A stretch of DNA of 64,000 nucleotides from the NCBI GenBank assembly GCA_000004695.1, contig CM000153.2, forward strand, positions 3,360,001-3,424,000, given 5' to 3'. Each line of letters starts with the position of its first letter. Positions within the stretch are counted from its first letter, which is position 1. Shown piece after piece: positions 5,174 to 11,040 of this stretch. This DNA comes from Dictyostelium discoideum. Its lineage: Eukaryota. The notes beneath the pieces are model-generated. The model saw only the letters and a program-made list of their open reading frames with translations, was not told the origin of the DNA and did no database searches. A program made the translations under genes and the position numbers.

Positions 5174-5595
5174 TTTATAATTTAATAATTTATGATGGTG
5201 TTATCAATATATTGATATCAGTTACGACCCAAAACGAAAAATAAATTGTTTTTTTTTTAAATTTTTTCTTTTCTTTTTTTTTTTTTTTTTTTTTTTCAGA
5301 TATTTTTTTTTGGGATTTTAGAAAAAGCAAAATAAAAATAAAAAAAAAAATTAAAATAAAATTTAAATAAAAAATCTAAATTATCTAACCAGGGTGTTAT
5401 TTATTTTCAAGTCCGAAAAATTCTACTTTTTTAAAAAAAATAAAATAAAGAATAAATAAAAAAAGATAAAATTTTTTTTTTTTTTTTTTTTATGTTTAAG
5501 TTATCAAGTGCATCGATGGATGCATTGTGTGGGTGTTTTGGAAGTTTTAATTTTTAAGTTAATGTCTGGATTATTGGTTTCAATAAAAAATTGAT

Positions 5596-5665
5596 TTTCA
5601 CCAAACAGGCTTTGACACAATGGTTGACTGTGGTTTTGATAGTGATCAATCCGATGTTACTTCAG
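5596..5665 (+). pseudogene. Degenerate copy of tRNA-Tyr plus about 40 bp of its 5' flank
   Basis: Alignable to the intact tRNA at 6227 (caggctttgacacaatggt...tgactgtggttttgatagtgatcaatccgatgtt). The D-arm is deleted, so it cannot fold. Confidence 0.5.
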
Positions 5666-5685
5666 AAATCGATTTTTTTTTTTTT

Positions 5686-5760
5686 AAATTGTATAACACA
5701 ATTAATGGTGCTTCTCCTTGAGATGCTAGAACTCATTTTATTTGTAATATTTTTTACAGG
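5686..5760 (+). repeat. Direct repeat copy A (about 75 bp, partner at 6112..6190)
   Basis: Shared core gcttctccttgagatgctaga(a/t)ctcattttatttgta, about 85% identical. Confidence 0.7.
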
Positions 5761-5902
5761 GTCTAAAAGAGGGTCAGTTTATTTTTTTATTTTTTTATTT
5801 ATTTTTTTTTTTTTTATTTTTTTATTGAAATTTTTTTTTTTTTTTTTATTTTGAAAATTTTCAAAAAAAAAAGAAAAAAATAATCAGACAGATAAAAACA
5901 AT

Positions 5903-6067
5903 CAACAACCTCTTTTTTTGATTATTTCATTTTTCATATAAAAAGACTTAAAAACAAACAAATAAATAAAGTATACTTATTTTAAAAAGCCATTTTTTGC
6001 TATTTATTTATTTGTTATTAAGTCTTTTTATATGAAAAATGAAATAATCAAAAAAAGAGGTTGTTGG
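5903..6067. repeat. Large near-perfect palindrome (arms about 48 nt perfect, about 70 nt imperfect; about 65 nt spacer)
   Basis: caacaacctctttttttgattatttcatttttcatataaaaagacttaa at 5903-5950 is the exact reverse complement of 6018-6067. Confidence 0.85.
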
Positions 6068-6111
6068 TTATTTTAATCTCAAAAAGAAATCGAAGGTTTT
6101 TTTTTTTTTTT

Positions 6112-6190
6112 TTTGAATTGGATAACGCAATTATTAGTTGCTTCTCCTTGAGATGCTAGATCTCATTTTATTTGTACTTTTTATAAATCG
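6112..6190 (+). repeat. Direct repeat copy A' (partner of 5686..5760)
   Basis: See copy A. Lies about 35 bp upstream of the tRNA-Tyr. Confidence 0.7.
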
Positions 6191-6226
6191 AAGGTTAACT
6201 GATAAAAAAAATAAAATTTCATCAAA

Positions 6227-6309
6227 CCGGCTTTGGCGCAATGGTAGCGCGATTGACTGTAGTAAATTAAGTGATCAATCGGTTGCTAGTTCGAATCTGG
6301 CAAGCCGGA
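6227..6309 (+). tRNA. tRNA-Tyr (anticodon GUA) with an 11-nt intron (about 6263..6273)
   Basis: Acceptor stem ccggctt/aagccgg. D arm gcgc-aatggta-gcgc. Anticodon stem attga/tcaat with loop ct-GTA-g plus intron. T arm gctag-TTCGAAT-ctggc. Discriminator A followed by a T5 Pol III terminator. Eukaryotic tRNA-Tyr genes characteristically carry an intron. Confidence 0.85.
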
Positions 6310-6346
6310 CTTTTTCCAACCACCAATTATAAGACGCATGTTCGAC

Positions 6347-6357
6347 TCCGTATTTAA
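6347..6357 (+). promoter_or_regulatory. External B-box-like element (TGTTCGACTCC) about 40 bp downstream of the tRNA
   Basis: Matches the B-box consensus GGTTCGANTCC. Dictyostelium tRNA genes often carry such ex-B boxes. Confidence 0.45.
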
Positions 6358-6363
6358 TCAATT

Positions 6364-7468
6364 ATTAAAGCTCATCAATAATAATTGATTAAATAATTAT
6401 TAAAGCTCATCAATAATAACATAACACAGGCAAAGGGATAACAAGAAAAATGCCAGAATTATTAAACACAATAAGATCATCCTTAGTACTATGGAAAACC
6501 ACTGACTCAACAATCAAAACCAAAACCAACATCCTCAAAGCATTCGCACTCTCTAAATTAACCTACTATTCATATGTAGAGAACTTTAAGGAAGAGGAAT
6601 TAAACCAAATCAATAAATTAGTCGAATGGTTTTTATCGGCACCAAACAACAAAAATGCTAGTGGATTTCAAGTTATTAATTTAATGAGAACCAAAAGAGC
6701 AAGATACCCACTAAAAGTAGGGGGCTGGAACATTTGGAATATAGAATTGAGACAACTGGCGCAGAAACTTTGGATCATAAACCAGTTCATCCTAGCACTA
6801 GAAACCAAACAAACAAACTCATCTCATCACAAAAGCTGGGAATATCAGATCCAAAAAAACAAATTCACATCCAGATACCTAAAAGAAAACTTAGACGAAT
6901 GGAACAAAATAAGAATAAAAAAAGCAATCTTCAACAATAATCTCACATCCATAAAAAACGAAAATGGACAACCACTTTCACTGGCAGAATGGTATACCAC
7001 AATTCAAGACCAAAATCCAACCATCCCTAAAACGGAATTCCAATCATCTCTAAACTTAATTCATTGTACCACTGTGCAATCAAATATACAGTGAAGATCC
7101 TTTAACAAATGAATCACTATCATACAGCTCCCTTCTAAAGAAATGGCACAAATTGGCCACTCTAGAATACATCAAAAAAGCAAAAGATCTGAAAAACTTA
7201 TCAGCAAAAGACCATAATAATTTCAAAGATCCTAAGATCCTTCTCACCTCAACGATCAAGCTAAGAAAAACAACAGCTAATTACTATTGTATTCCAGAAT
7301 CATCTCTCCCAAATATTATATCTTTTGATCAATTCATATGATTAAAATAACCCTTCAGCTTAAATGATAAGCCTATAAATAAATATTAAATAAAAACTCG
7401 TATTAACACAGATGGACATATATCAATCTTGTTAATCCAATATTAAAAAAAAAAAAAAAAAAAAAAAA
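6364..7468 (+). mobile_element. 5'-truncated non-LTR (TRE3-like, tRNA-gene-targeted) retrotransposon 3' fragment with poly(A) tail
   Basis: Region is GC-richer than its surroundings. A 214-aa ORF (6450..7094) has no cellular homolog pattern. Terminal A26 run at 7443-7468. Sits 55-1150 bp downstream of a tRNA in the same orientation, the known TRE3 integration site. Confidence 0.55.
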
Positions 7469-7615
7469 ACTTTTTAAAATCCATATATAAACCTTTCGGC
7501 TAAATAAAAAAAGAATCAGTGAGTGTTATGGAAAAGAATAAGAAAAAATATGAAAAAAATATGAAAAAACTCAAAAAAAAAATTTTTTTTTTTTTTTTTT
7601 CAATTTTTTAATTTA

Positions 7616-10093
7616 ATGATGAATTCTGATCAAAAGTTAGATATAAATATATTATTTTGGAAGGTAATAAAAAATAAAGTTTTGTTCAAAAAAATATTGA
7701 AATATTTATCCTATGAATATAATGATGATGATATATCAAAACCATTATTTTCAGTACAGTGGTTAATAAATAATGGATACAGGAAAACTTTAAAACATAA
7801 AATAATGAATGATCATTACTTAGAATTTGATAAAAATTACTCTTCAAATGCCTTTGAAAATTACTCGTCAAATGTCTTTGAAAATTTTTTTTTATTCTTT
7901 AAAGATGAAACAGATGAAGAATTTTATAAAAATTTATTTTCAAGAAATTATTTTAAATCAATATTTCAATCTAAAAATATAACCAATATTAATAATAATA
8001 ATAATAATAAAAATTTTAATAATTTTTTTGAATCAATAATTAAAACAATTTTTGAAACGAATAATTTTATTGCAATAAAAGTATTAAATGAAGAATATTA
8101 TTATTTAACTTGTAAAGTAAAGTTTGGAATTTTAGATAATTATGAAATTTTAAATTGGTTATTGAAAACCTATGGAAAAACATATATTTTAGAGTATATA
8201 AAAAACAATATTAATAATGATATTGAAGAACCTTTACAAGTTTTTATAAATTCAATCTCTTCAAATATATATTTAGCAAACCCAAAATCATCAGAGAGTT
8301 TAGAATCAATAATTGATTTATTTAAATTATTAACAGAGGATTTGAACATTGAAATACCAAATTGCAGTAAGCAAAGGATTCTTTCAATTATTTTACAAAT
8401 TTGTCCAATCAATAATAATTATGCCATTAGACTTATTTTAAAATTATTTAAATTTATTAGAATGTTTCGTGATTCCAAACCATTTAATAAACAACTTTCA
8501 ATTATTGAATCAATTGAATTTTCAAAAGAACAGTTGGATATGAGACTTTTGGATTTTATACATAATGATCAAAAGCAAAAGCAAATGTTTAAAACATTAA
8601 TTAAAAGTTACTATGAAAATGTTTTTTCAAATGGATTTAGTTTTTTATATTATTACATTTATGAAAGTATTGAATTATTTAAATCAAGTCAAATTATAAA
8701 TAATAATCATTCAATAAATCCGAAATATTATACATTCACTTCATTCGAGTATGGAGATATTGAATTATTTAAATTCACTTTTAATTCTCTTTCAATTGAT
8801 GATCGTAATTATTTAATGAATGGTACACAACAATTACTTCTTAATGGTAAAATAATATTTTTTAAATATTCCAATGATAAATCAATGAATGAAAAAATGA
8901 AATTTATTAATCAAGTAACTATGGAAATTAATAATTCAAAAAGCAAACGTAGTTTTTTAGAAAAAACTGATAAAATTGAATTTTTAATTTATTTATTTAC
9001 ATATTTAATAAAAATAAATGAAATTGAATTATTAAATGTAATTATTAAAGATTGTAATTTCAATCCATACTCAAAATCATTTAAAGTATCCAAATCAGAT
9101 TATTTATACATTTGTAGATATATTAAATCAATATCAATGTTAGATTTTATTTATTTCAATTTTAAAGATATGGATAATTTAATTTGGGATTGTAAATCTT
9201 GGTGTAATGATAATAGATTCGATTTGATTGAACATTATTTAAATTTAAATTCAAAACATGTTTCTGGAGTCACCATGGTCAATTATGATATAAAAAATGA
9301 AACCAACCTTAAATTAAATAATAAATTAAATTCAATTTCAATAGAAATTAAAAACACAAATGATAATATTGGGTCAATGAAATATTTTATTGGAAAATAT
9401 AAAAATCAAAATTATAAATTATTATCATCACTACCAAAATTTAAAATTTATTTTCATTTTGATAAAAATGTTAATAGTACTATTTTTGATAATATAAATA
9501 ATTATAAATTTATAATTGAAAACAGTTTAAACTACAATTGTCGTCAATCATCTAAAAATGAAAATCAAGAAGCAAAAGAAGAAGAGGAAGAATTCTTAGA
9601 TCATGATCTATTTGATGATAATAGTGTTGATAATGATAATTTAGTTACAAACTATTGTTTTAAATGGAGTGGATTTATTCCATACCAATATGTTGAATTT
9701 ATAAAATGGATTTTAGAAAGTCGTCAAAATGATTTGAAATCAGGTCGTTTAATTATTTCAAGTCATCAATTAATTTCATTTAAATATTTAATTTATTTAC
9801 AAAGTAATGGTATTAAATATTTAAATGAAATTGATTCATTCATTTCTTCAACAACATCAAGTTCAGTAGAAAATTATTTATTTTTTTGTGCTTTTAATCA
9901 TTGTGATTTAAAAACAATAGATAAAATTATTAATAATTTAAAAAATTCAAATTTAGATATTCTCTCTTCATTATTTAATTACTCAACAATGTGTGGTCAA
10001 ATTAAAGTACTTAAACATTTATATAAAAATCATAAATTTCTTTTTGAAACATTTTCTTCAAAAAATTTCTTAAAACAATATAATTTGGAATAA
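7616..10093 (+). CDS. Hypothetical Asn-rich protein (825 aa), single exon
   Basis: Long uninterrupted ORF from an ATG. AT-biased codon usage typical of Dictyostelium coding sequence. No recognisable domain. Confidence 0.55.
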   Translation: MMNSDQKLDINILFWKVIKNKVLFKKILKYLSYEYNDDDISKPLFSVQWLINNGYRKTLKHKIMNDHYLEFDKNYSSNAFENYSSNVFENFFLFFKDETDEEFYKNLFSRNYFKSIFQSKNITNINNNNNNKNFNNFFESIIKTIFETNNFIAIKVLNEEYYYLTCKVKFGILDNYEILNWLLKTYGKTYILEYIKNNINNDIEEPLQVFINSISSNIYLANPKSSESLESIIDLFKLLTEDLNIEIPNCSKQRILSIILQICPINNNYAIRLILKLFKFIRMFRDSKPFNKQLSIIESIEFSKEQLDMRLLDFIHNDQKQKQMFKTLIKSYYENVFSNGFSFLYYYIYESIELFKSSQIINNNHSINPKYYTFTSFEYGDIELFKFTFNSLSIDDRNYLMNGTQQLLLNGKIIFFKYSNDKSMNEKMKFINQVTMEINNSKSKRSFLEKTDKIEFLIYLFTYLIKINEIELLNVIIKDCNFNPYSKSFKVSKSDYLYICRYIKSISMLDFIYFNFKDMDNLIWDCKSWCNDNRFDLIEHYLNLNSKHVSGVTMVNYDIKNETNLKLNNKLNSISIEIKNTNDNIGSMKYFIGKYKNQNYKLLSSLPKFKIYFHFDKNVNSTIFDNINNYKFIIENSLNYNCRQSSKNENQEAKEEEEEFLDHDLFDDNSVDNDNLVTNYCFKWSGFIPYQYVEFIKWILESRQNDLKSGRLIISSHQLISFKYLIYLQSNGIKYLNEIDSFISSTTSSSVENYLFFCAFNHCDLKTIDKIINNLKNSNLDILSSLFNYSTMCGQIKVLKHLYKNHKFLFETFSSKNFLKQYNLE

Positions 10094-10279: not shown

Positions 10280-10789
10280 AAATTTGTAACATACACCTTC
10301 ATGAGATATTTTCCAATAATCATTTTTTATAATATACAATGGGGTATTATCTAATAAAGAATTTGTAAAAAAAAAAAAAAAAATTAAATTTAATTTTAAT
10401 TTAGGGGTTAAAATTAAAAGAATTAAAAAAAAATTAAAGAATAAAAAAAATCTAGATATTTGTATTAGTTTTATTGTTATGGCCCATTATAATTTGAATT
10501 AACAATTTTTATATATATTTATAAGGGAACTATTACCATTTCATTCAAAATTTTTTGATTTCAAAAAATATCTAATATATTAATTGAAATCATAAACATT
10601 TTTCAAAGATTTATATTATTTTCGTAAAAGAATAATAAAAAAAGGTTACAAATTCGAAAATAATGAATAATTTTAATTGGTTAAAAAAAAACTATAAATA
10701 GTTTTTTTTTTATTCAAATCATTCAAATCATTCAAATCAATCAAATATTTTAAATTATTTAATATTCTAAAAAAAAAAAAAAAAAGAAA

Positions 10790-11040
10790 ATGTCAATCTT
10801 TGGTAAATATTAAAAATTAAAAAAAAAAATTTTTAGTAATATTAATCTTACTATTTCATTTTTATTTCCTTAAAATTAGCCTCAATTGTTTCAATCTCAA
10901 AAGTTAACAACAAAAAGAATTCAACAGCAGTTGGTTCATCAGAAAATAAAATTCAATACTCAACAAGTCAAGTTTCTGGTGGTCTTGTAAGTGATTTACT
11001 CTGCGATATTGCTGTTACTTTGGATAAAGCTGGCCTCTAA
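10790..11040 (+). CDS. HssA/2C/7E-like small protein (about 57 aa), exons 10790..10802 and 10880..11040
   Basis: 13-nt first exon ATGTCAATCTTTG with GTAAAT donor. TTAG acceptor. Product MSIFASIVSISKV...VSGGLVSDLLCDIAVTLDKAGL. Paralog at 11635. Confidence 0.5.

Follow-up and report, generated by a model that had tools for sequence, protein, structure and literature searches.

How does one tRNA gene come to stand among a decayed copy of itself, a long palindrome, a pair of direct repeats, and the tail of a retrotransposon? This question is raised by a tRNA-Tyr locus of Dictyostelium discoideum, which we analyzed in a stretch of 64,000 nucleotides (contig CM000153.2, positions 3,360,001 to 3,424,000 of the forward strand) that we call the window; all coordinates count from its first letter. 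A sequence-only reading had recognized these parts and held that the palindrome, the repeats, and the tRNA-like remnant are not explained by a simple retroelement insertion. Our results indicate that the locus is most likely an ordinary D. discoideum tRNA-gene landing pad for tRNA-targeted non-LTR (LTR, long terminal repeat) retrotransposons.

The history that we propose would start from a conserved gene, TyrGUA-5, which is transcribed by RNA polymerase III (Pol III), is followed by an external B box (ex-B), and would attract non-LTR elements by target-primed reverse transcription (TPRT). Upstream of the gene and on the opposite strand, two TRE5-A-type insertions would have taken place, an older, distal one (TE1) and a young, proximal one (TE2). 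TE1 would have landed between the live gene and a decayed partial tandem copy of it, and its 5'-terminal ~80 nt may have given rise to the palindrome, at integration or in a later fold-back repair. Downstream, on the strand of the tRNA, a TRE3-type copy (TE3) would have arrived 5' truncated; 485 bp are missing from its interior, and its 5' junction shows a small templated duplication. Two isolates, FIR and FIW, would later have lost ~0.5 kb, namely, the pseudo-tRNA and most of TE1, and would never have received TE2 or TE3.

The window was compared with a second assembly of D. discoideum (GCA_054883475.1; L001), with the D. discoideum isolates FIR (L002) and FIW (L005), with D. cf. discoideum (L003), D. 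citrinum (L004 and L007), D. firmibasis (L008), and D. dimigraforme (L009), and with a tRNA-Leu(UAA) locus on another chromosome (L010). Across positions 5200-7800, L001 is identical to the window save for homopolymer lengths. Divergence between isolates amounts to 2 to 5%.

The tRNA-Tyr gene and its external B box

The tRNA gene occupies 6227-6309 on the forward strand (exon 1, 6227-6262; intron, 6263-6273; exon 2, 6274-6309; internal B box, 6289-6297). The Rfam model RF00005 scores it at 57.8 bits (E value, 7e-10) against a gathering score of 29, and it is the sole Rfam tRNA match within the window. Without intron handling, ARAGORN does not name its anticodon; once 11 nt (6263-6273) are excised from the canonical 37/38 position, the program returns a tRNA-Tyr(GTA) of 72 nt. 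A free intron search with ARAGORN gave Asn(GTT), with a noncanonical intron at 34/35. We rejected this call, given that variation among species is confined to the canonical 11-nt intron and that the gene has been published as TyrGUA-5. The acceptor stem has the sequence CCGGCTT...AAGCCGG, after which comes an A, so that the C1-G72 pair and the A73 discriminator, which are identity elements for eukaryotic tyrosyl-tRNA synthetases, are both present. The exons show 100% identity across seven genomes (three D. discoideum haplotypes, D. cf. discoideum, D. citrinum, D. firmibasis, and D. dimigraforme), every difference falls within the 11-nt intron, and the gene keeps its place between a Ctr copper-transporter gene and a gene of ~800 amino acids. 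Table S2 of PMC5391098 lists TyrGUA-5 at chr4:3366227-3366309, and its entries for this gene give 0, 4, and 1135 experimentally mapped integrations of tagged TRE5-A in three libraries. The intron-containing tRNA-Tyr(GUA) named in the sequence-only reading is thus borne out by model score, splicing, and publication alike.

The ex-B proposed for the gene is also present: GTTCGACTCC lies at 6340-6349 on the forward strand and begins 30 nt past the tRNA end. It is kept as a GTTCGA(C/T)(T/A)CC-like sequence in 7/7 orthologous loci, while the neighboring spacer diverges. An ex-B is reported for about 80% of D. discoideum tRNA genes (PMC5911963).

Two observations concern the flanks of the gene. The 24 nt directly 5' of it (6203-6226; TAAAAAAAATAAAATTTCATCAAA) match at 100% the 24 nt that precede the tRNA-Leu(UAA) gene on another chromosome (L010 9848-9871), and they differ from the flank found in FIR and FIW; this shared sequence could be a conserved 5' box or the product of ectopic conversion between tRNA loci. 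The spacer from the tRNA to the ex-B (6310-6353) is 20% diverged between the window and FIR/FIW, against only 2% in distal intergenic DNA, and the tRNA intron differs too, so that divergence is locally raised at the tRNA gene.

Two TRE5-A-type insertions upstream of the gene

The direct repeat, originally given as 75 bp, exists with shifted boundaries: 5673-5752 and 6102-6182 are 88.9% identical over 81 bp, and a T-run precedes each copy. Retroelement insertion, and not segmental duplication, explains these repeats. They are the 3' ends (C-module plus oligo-A) of two TRE5-A-type elements on the strand opposite the tRNA, each with a target site duplication (TSD), and their sequence recurs at the tRNA-Leu locus. 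According to the rule described for TRE5 elements, insertions lie 40 to 54 bp upstream, in opposite orientation, with the 5' end facing the tRNA (PMC5911963, PMC3159450). Both elements agree with this rule in position and orientation: they are on the minus strand, and their 5' ends are 42 nt (TE2) and, once TE2 is subtracted, 44 nt (TE1) upstream of the tRNA.

TE2 (6099-6184, minus strand, 86 bp) is an extremely 5'-truncated copy that consists of T16 and the 3'-terminal 70 nt of the C-module. Its 12-bp TSD, AAATCGAAGGTT, lies at 6087-6098 and 6185-6196 (12/12 matches), and the exact 12-mer occurs at 6087 and 6185 only. FIR and FIW both have the exact empty site, with a single copy of the 12-mer region and no insert. 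TRE5-A ends in a C-module of 134 to 137 bp, the last 54 nt of which form an essential hairpin, and nucleotides C38, A35, C26, and T15 are named in this connection (PMC3159450). The sense strand of TE2 carries T15, C26, A35, and C38, counted from the 3' end, which are the published TRE5-A.1 C-module nucleotides. In its predicted fold (-16.6 kcal/mol at 22 C), positions 35 and 38 share one stem, and a second stem contains positions 15 and 26; the published C-module fold energy is -20.1 by mfold (PMC3159450). TE2 is 95.5% identical over 89 bp to the C sequence of L010.

TE1 (5673-6084, minus strand, 412 bp) is an older, rearranged TRE5-A-type element made up of T13 (5673-5685), a C-module (5686-5777), an A/T-rich run (5778-5889), and the palindrome. 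Its 9-bp TSD, AGAAATCGA, abuts the poly-T on the left (5664-5672) and returns on the right (6085-6093), 5 nt beyond the right end of the palindrome, where it overlaps the TSD of TE2. Within the window this 9-mer is found only twice, at 5664 and 6085. We read 5673-6084 as one TPRT insertion. The segment 5672-5807 is 87% identical to the C-module and internal A-run of the tRNA-Leu-linked element in L010, and the C-module repeats of TE1 (C1) and TE2 (C2) differ by a 1-nt indel and 10% substitutions.

At L010, the C sequence follows a T-run within an insertion bounded by ATTGTATTTGGC, upstream of the tRNA-Leu gene and on the opposite strand. Four copies of the 12-mer ATTGTATTTGGC are present at this target (9249-9871), which points to three nested TRE5-type insertions; one of the three is just T23 plus 8 nt of C-module. 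The C copy belongs to a BC-like element, and the open reading frame (ORF) attached to it starts MKITNNTTNI, with Ile-10 as in the published TRE5-A ORF1 (PMC3159450). L010 7445-8823 contains another minus-strand TRE-like element, whose 3' tail is different. Metagenome and prokaryote-genome collections scanned with the 22-nt C core gave no match, and a full-text literature search for k-mers of the C-module and of the palindrome arms gave a single match, which was irrelevant.

One other candidate for C1 and C2, a decayed tRNA 3' flank with an ex-B, was set aside: its alignments were not significant (p values of 0.01 to 0.9 in 14 tests), and the L010 evidence superseded it. The sequence 'aattggataac', which follows the tRNA in D. 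dimigraforme, had suggested this idea.

The palindrome lies inside TE1

The palindrome extends over 5890-6079, more widely than the 5903-6067 first assigned to it, and comprises a left arm (5890-5968), a spacer of 32 nt (5969-6000), and a right arm (6001-6079). The complementarity of the arms was correctly seen; it amounts to 94% over 79 nt. Folded as RNA, the palindrome reaches -85.1 kcal/mol (z = -17.3), and 0/200 shuffles fold as well. It is not an independent element, since it lies inside TE1 and includes the TE1 5' terminus. In this regard, both arms agree over their outer 26 to 27 nt with the 5' terminus of the element in L010 (26/27 and 24/26), and a gapped alignment extends to about 100 nt (p value of about 0.003). 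We infer that the palindrome is an inverted duplication of the 5'-terminal ~80 nt of TE1, formed at integration or by later fold-back repair. On the forward strand, the order is sense arm, spacer, and antisense arm, the last ending at the element terminus. Fold-back repair synthesis after a break and template switching to an antisense TRE5 RNA are possible origins of this arrangement.

Two side observations touch the interior of TE1. In D. dimigraforme, 56 nt at an unrelated intergenic site (L009 10733-10789) are ~82% identical to the inner right arm (6002-6056) and abut A24; the inner arm could have been derived from a repeat. A perfect 18-nt palindrome, TTTTGAAAATTTTCAAAA, stands at 5849-5866, where the T-rich and A-rich halves of the low-complexity stretch of TE1 meet.

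A long, near-perfect inverted repeat might also be expected of a miniature inverted-repeat transposable element (MITE) or a foldback DNA transposon, and the palindrome with its flanking repeats had been tentatively assigned to such an element with terminal inverted repeats (TIRs). This assignment is contradicted by the repeats themselves, which are direct, each end in poly-T, and in one case have their own 12-bp TSD. Furthermore, no TSD surrounds the palindrome, and no second copy of it is found in the window or in the roughly 190 kb of ten related loci, where only the 27-nt terminal motif recurs. A DNA transposon is therefore extremely improbable here, and we retain the palindrome as a part of TE1.

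Alternatively, the palindrome could be a functional hairpin RNA gene, that is, a precursor of microRNA (miRNA) or small interfering RNA (siRNA), which would still allow an origin from a transposable element. Its 79-bp stem is very stable, the sequence ahead of it is T rich like reported D. discoideum pri-miRNA start sites, and miRNAs derived from transposable elements are known in this species. Yet it is not in Table S1 of PMC6161686, where the chromosome 4 entries fall between 0.74 and 2.38 Mb (the locus is at 3.37 Mb) and where a perfect stem of 79 bp would be atypical among hairpins of ~100 to 150 nt. No Rfam family is matched at the gathering score, and two wild isolates have deleted the sequence without compensation. 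We consider such a gene very unlikely and continue to regard the palindrome as a rearranged TE1 terminus. The candidate thug-S was dropped; it is described as intron-containing and multi-copy.

A related possibility, to which we give only a slim chance, is that the 190-bp hairpin, if transcribed, is a natural source of siRNA against TRE5 5' ends through its 79-bp double-stranded stem. The palindrome adjoins the C-module, which is a known antisense promoter, and lies between two divergently transcribed genes. If this were true, wild isolates would differ in the presence of an siRNA hairpin, which the AX4 type would have and FIR and FIW would have lost by deletion.

A decayed tRNA copy and the history of the isolates

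The decayed tRNA copy that had been noticed upstream, 5' flank included, is found at 5584-5663 on the forward strand, 621 bp upstream of the live gene. Its first 22 nt (5584-5605) resemble the 5' flank, and the rest (5606-5663) corresponds to the tRNA body, starting at position 1 and reaching the T-arm. Aligned to the tRNA and its 5' flank, it reaches a Smith-Waterman score of 71.5, against a shuffle null of 19.2 +/- 2.7 (0/1000 as high). The intron region is included, the D-arm has lost 8 nt, the 3' end is missing, and substitutions relative to the live gene amount to 17%; the Rfam tRNA model does not detect it at E <= 10. Judging by the alignment, this pseudo-tRNA is a genuine DNA-level relative of the tRNA-Tyr gene whose structure has been lost. 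Without TE1 and TE2, about 102 bp would separate its start from that of the live gene, and this spacing suggests an old partial tandem duplication. The pseudo-tRNA is absent from FIR, FIW, and four other species, and its intron resembles the type of the outgroup species. A second candidate pseudo-tRNA, at 6040-6098, was rejected as not significant (p value of 0.29). Segment X (5510-5597) shows no significant homology to the 5' flanks in other species (p values of 0.02 to 0.9).

Divergence between paralogous parts of the locus is 17% for the pseudo-tRNA, 10% for C1/C2, and 6% for the palindrome arms. Set against the 2 to 5% between isolates, these values are consistent with TE1 being older than the isolates and TE2 younger. 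They also bear on the idea of a local templated rearrangement, whereby the pseudo-tRNA, C1, and the left arm were copied from the nearby tRNA, TE2, and right arm by template switching or break repair, C1 then being a copy of C2 plus 9 nt of flank and not an independent insertion. Counterparts of all three pieces do occur within 630 bp, and AGAAATCGA stands to the left of both poly-T runs. However, the divergences are very unequal, with indels besides in the pseudo-tRNA, and all of them at least equal the inter-isolate range, yet TE2, absent from other isolates, is young. The poly-T of C1 directly abuts the 9-mer in the manner of a TSD, whereas five host bases intervene at C2. Finally, the 5' end of TE1 is kept in FIR and FIW, implying an earlier full insertion. 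A templated rearrangement thus seems improbable, and the most fitting explanation remains that TE1 and TE2 inserted separately.

What FIR and FIW keep of TE1 is just the outer ~35 nt of the right palindrome arm, located beside the -45 site and fused directly to host DNA of the distal flank. TPRT is known to leave 3' ends and not 5' ends by themselves; a lone 5' end of TE1 in these isolates therefore argues for a deletion. Such a deletion (~0.5 kb) would have taken out segment X and the pseudo-tRNA together with the left TSD, the C-module, and the left arm, either as 504 plus 22 bp between GTTATYAAGT repeats or as a single 536 bp.

The polarity of this change could also be reversed. If the short FIR/FIW form were ancestral, the AX4 lineage would have gained a block of ~536 bp (5510-6045) whose source was another tRNA-Tyr locus, with ectopic recombination or conversion as conceivable routes. 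Such a gain would fit the lack of the block in two isolates and four other species, the 20% divergence of the tRNA-proximal flanks from FIR/FIW (2% elsewhere), the identity of the 24 nt 5' of the tRNA to a tRNA-Leu locus, and the outgroup-like intron of the pseudo-tRNA. Yet it would depend on several coincidences, among them a 9-bp match placed precisely at the poly-T. An inverted copy of "host" DNA would need to be part of the inserted block, and the agreement of the "host" sequence at -45 with a TRE5-type 5' terminus (26/27) would need to be accidental; moreover, the block ends show neither a poly-A nor a TIR signature. We regard a gain in the AX4 lineage as unlikely and favor loss in FIR and FIW.

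A TRE3-type tail downstream of the gene

TE3 (about 6406-7470, forward strand, 1.06 kb) is a TRE3-type non-LTR element that is 5' truncated after the reverse transcriptase (RT) domain, ends in A26 (7445-7470), and starts 96 nt 3' of the tRNA on the same strand. TRE3 elements are described 40 to 150 bp downstream of tRNA genes, sharing their orientation and keyed to the B and ex-B boxes (PMC5911963), and TE3 conforms in position and orientation. Other copies of its family lie about 50 nt past the tRNA-Leu gene (L010) and 122 nt past a tRNA-Gly gene of D. citrinum (L004), on the strand of the tRNA in both cases; no tRNA was found beside the D. cf. discoideum copy in L003, which is a longer, rearranged element. 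A relative in D. purpureum, a species reported to have TRE3-like TREs only, is 51% identical at full coverage.

The ORF2 remnant of TE3 runs from 6450 to 7094 and continues in another frame to 7341. A Pfam scan of the 214-amino-acid ORF at 6450-7094 gave no family. Its product is 51 to 73% identical to Dictyostelium proteins, one of them with RVT_1, and 21/21 homologues are annotated "hypothetical protein." Among the relatives, P0004 has PF00078 (RT), and P0006, an intact C-terminal relative on another chromosome, has a CCHC finger (CPLC...H...C). These relatives uphold the earlier attribution of the ORF to a retroelement and not to a cellular gene.

Two stretches of TE3 are 100% identical to L010 (6987-7059 to 10010-10082 and 7075-7469 to 10568-10962). 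As the gap between them shows, TE3 has lost 485 bp, the CCHC zinc-finger (ZF) region, in place of which there is a 15-nt filler (7060-7074). Owing to truncation and deletion, this copy lacks the apurinic/apyrimidinic endonuclease (APE) region as well as those of RT and ZF. A 35-bp tandem duplication (6354-6388 and 6389-6423, forward strand; 94% identity, spacing 35) spans the host/TE3 5' junction, and its first unit stands in place of 10 nt present in FIR. The sequence-only reading was right about a 5'-truncated, TRE3-like tail ending in A26 and missed both the internal deletion and the junction duplication. FIR and FIW are without TE3 and have a run of A15-A21 at the site.

Other repeats and tails adjoin this tRNA gene and its orthologs. 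FIW has 13 copies of a 12-bp unit, GTGTTTAAGCTA, right after the ex-B (L005 9423-9578), where the window has the TE3 5' junction. In D. citrinum, a TRE3-like tail of ~270 bp lies behind the orthologous tRNA-Tyr gene (L007 5230-5420), and in D. firmibasis (L008 3740-5440, reverse strand) stacked TRE3-like copies with A28 and A29 runs do so. The tails in these two species are independent hits on the same tRNA gene.

The window has a G+C content of 17 to 28%, and its genes match D. discoideum AX4 DDB_G0285545, DDB_G0285547, and DDB_G0285751. The second of these, annotated as a "hypothetical protein" of 258 amino acids (6450-7341), is a TRE3-type ORF2 remnant spliced across the internal deletion; this AX4 gene model is a retroelement fragment and not a cellular gene.

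Weight and significance of the interpretation

Several points weigh against reading the locus as a product of TRE3- and TRE5-A-type insertions. The names themselves are based on position and orientation, on structure, and on a few published nucleotides, and the TRE3 subfamily (A to D) is not assignable. The TSDs of TE1 and TE2 overlap, which leaves a DNA-level copy of TE2 and its flank as a residual possibility. TE1 is colinear with the L010 element only at the C-module/A-run and over the first ~27 nt, and no source was found for the inner arms, the spacer, or the A/T-rich segment 5778-5889. First-strand cDNA snap-back and classical twin priming were rejected as origins of the palindrome, each predicting the opposite arm order. 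Lastly, no TSD is seen at TE3, and the window lacks the 14 to 16 bp that follow the A-run in FIR/FIW; this would be consistent with TPRT in which some target sequence was deleted.

Since TRE5 and TRE3 remnants around tRNA genes are the norm in D. discoideum, where 61% of tRNA genes carry a TRE, the locus adds little beyond bookkeeping; good documentation of such loci goes back to 1989-2001, and this particular gene has been published. The comparison of four D. discoideum assemblies nevertheless shows one TRE3-type and one TRE5-A-type insertion to be recent and polymorphic. One of the two matches another genomic copy at 100% identity, which suggests that activity continues in the AX4 lineage. 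The rearranged TE1, for its part, offers a small natural case of a retrotransposon junction at which a palindrome formed and a deletion associated with it took place.

Comparison with known systems

L1 5' inversions, attributed to twin priming, and products of fold-back (snap-back) repair synthesis may resemble TE1 in that the 5' end of a TPRT insertion holds an inverted segment, with the element terminus as its boundary. Unlike in L1 twin-priming inversions, the inverted segment here duplicates the terminal segment itself, a 32-nt spacer separates the copies, and the arm order is nonclassical.

The tRNA gene fits the TyrGUA family of D. discoideum (TyrGUA-1 to -13), all of whose members measure 83 bp: it is likewise 83 bp, with an intron after position 37. 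There is no difference to report, as its coordinates equal those of TyrGUA-5 and it is the same gene. TE3 shares with the TRE3 elements (Tdd-3/TRE3-A to -D) an L1-like ORF2 tail, a post-RT region, an oligo-A end, and a location downstream of a tRNA gene whose strand it shares, near an ex-B; its intact relatives have the CCHC zinc finger. In contrast to an intact TRE3, it is dead, being 5' truncated, deprived of its zinc finger by the 485-bp deletion, without a TSD, and marked by the 35-bp junction duplication.

TE1 and TE2 are like TRE5-A (DRE) in lying on the opposite strand 42 to 44 nt upstream of a tRNA gene, in having TSDs of 9 and 12 bp and an oligo-A end, and in sharing the tail found upstream of tRNA-Leu. 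They differ from it in that TE2 holds only the last 70 nt of the C-module, while TE1 is without any coding sequence and bears an inverted duplication of its own 5' terminus, an arrangement not described for TRE5 elements in the literature cited here.

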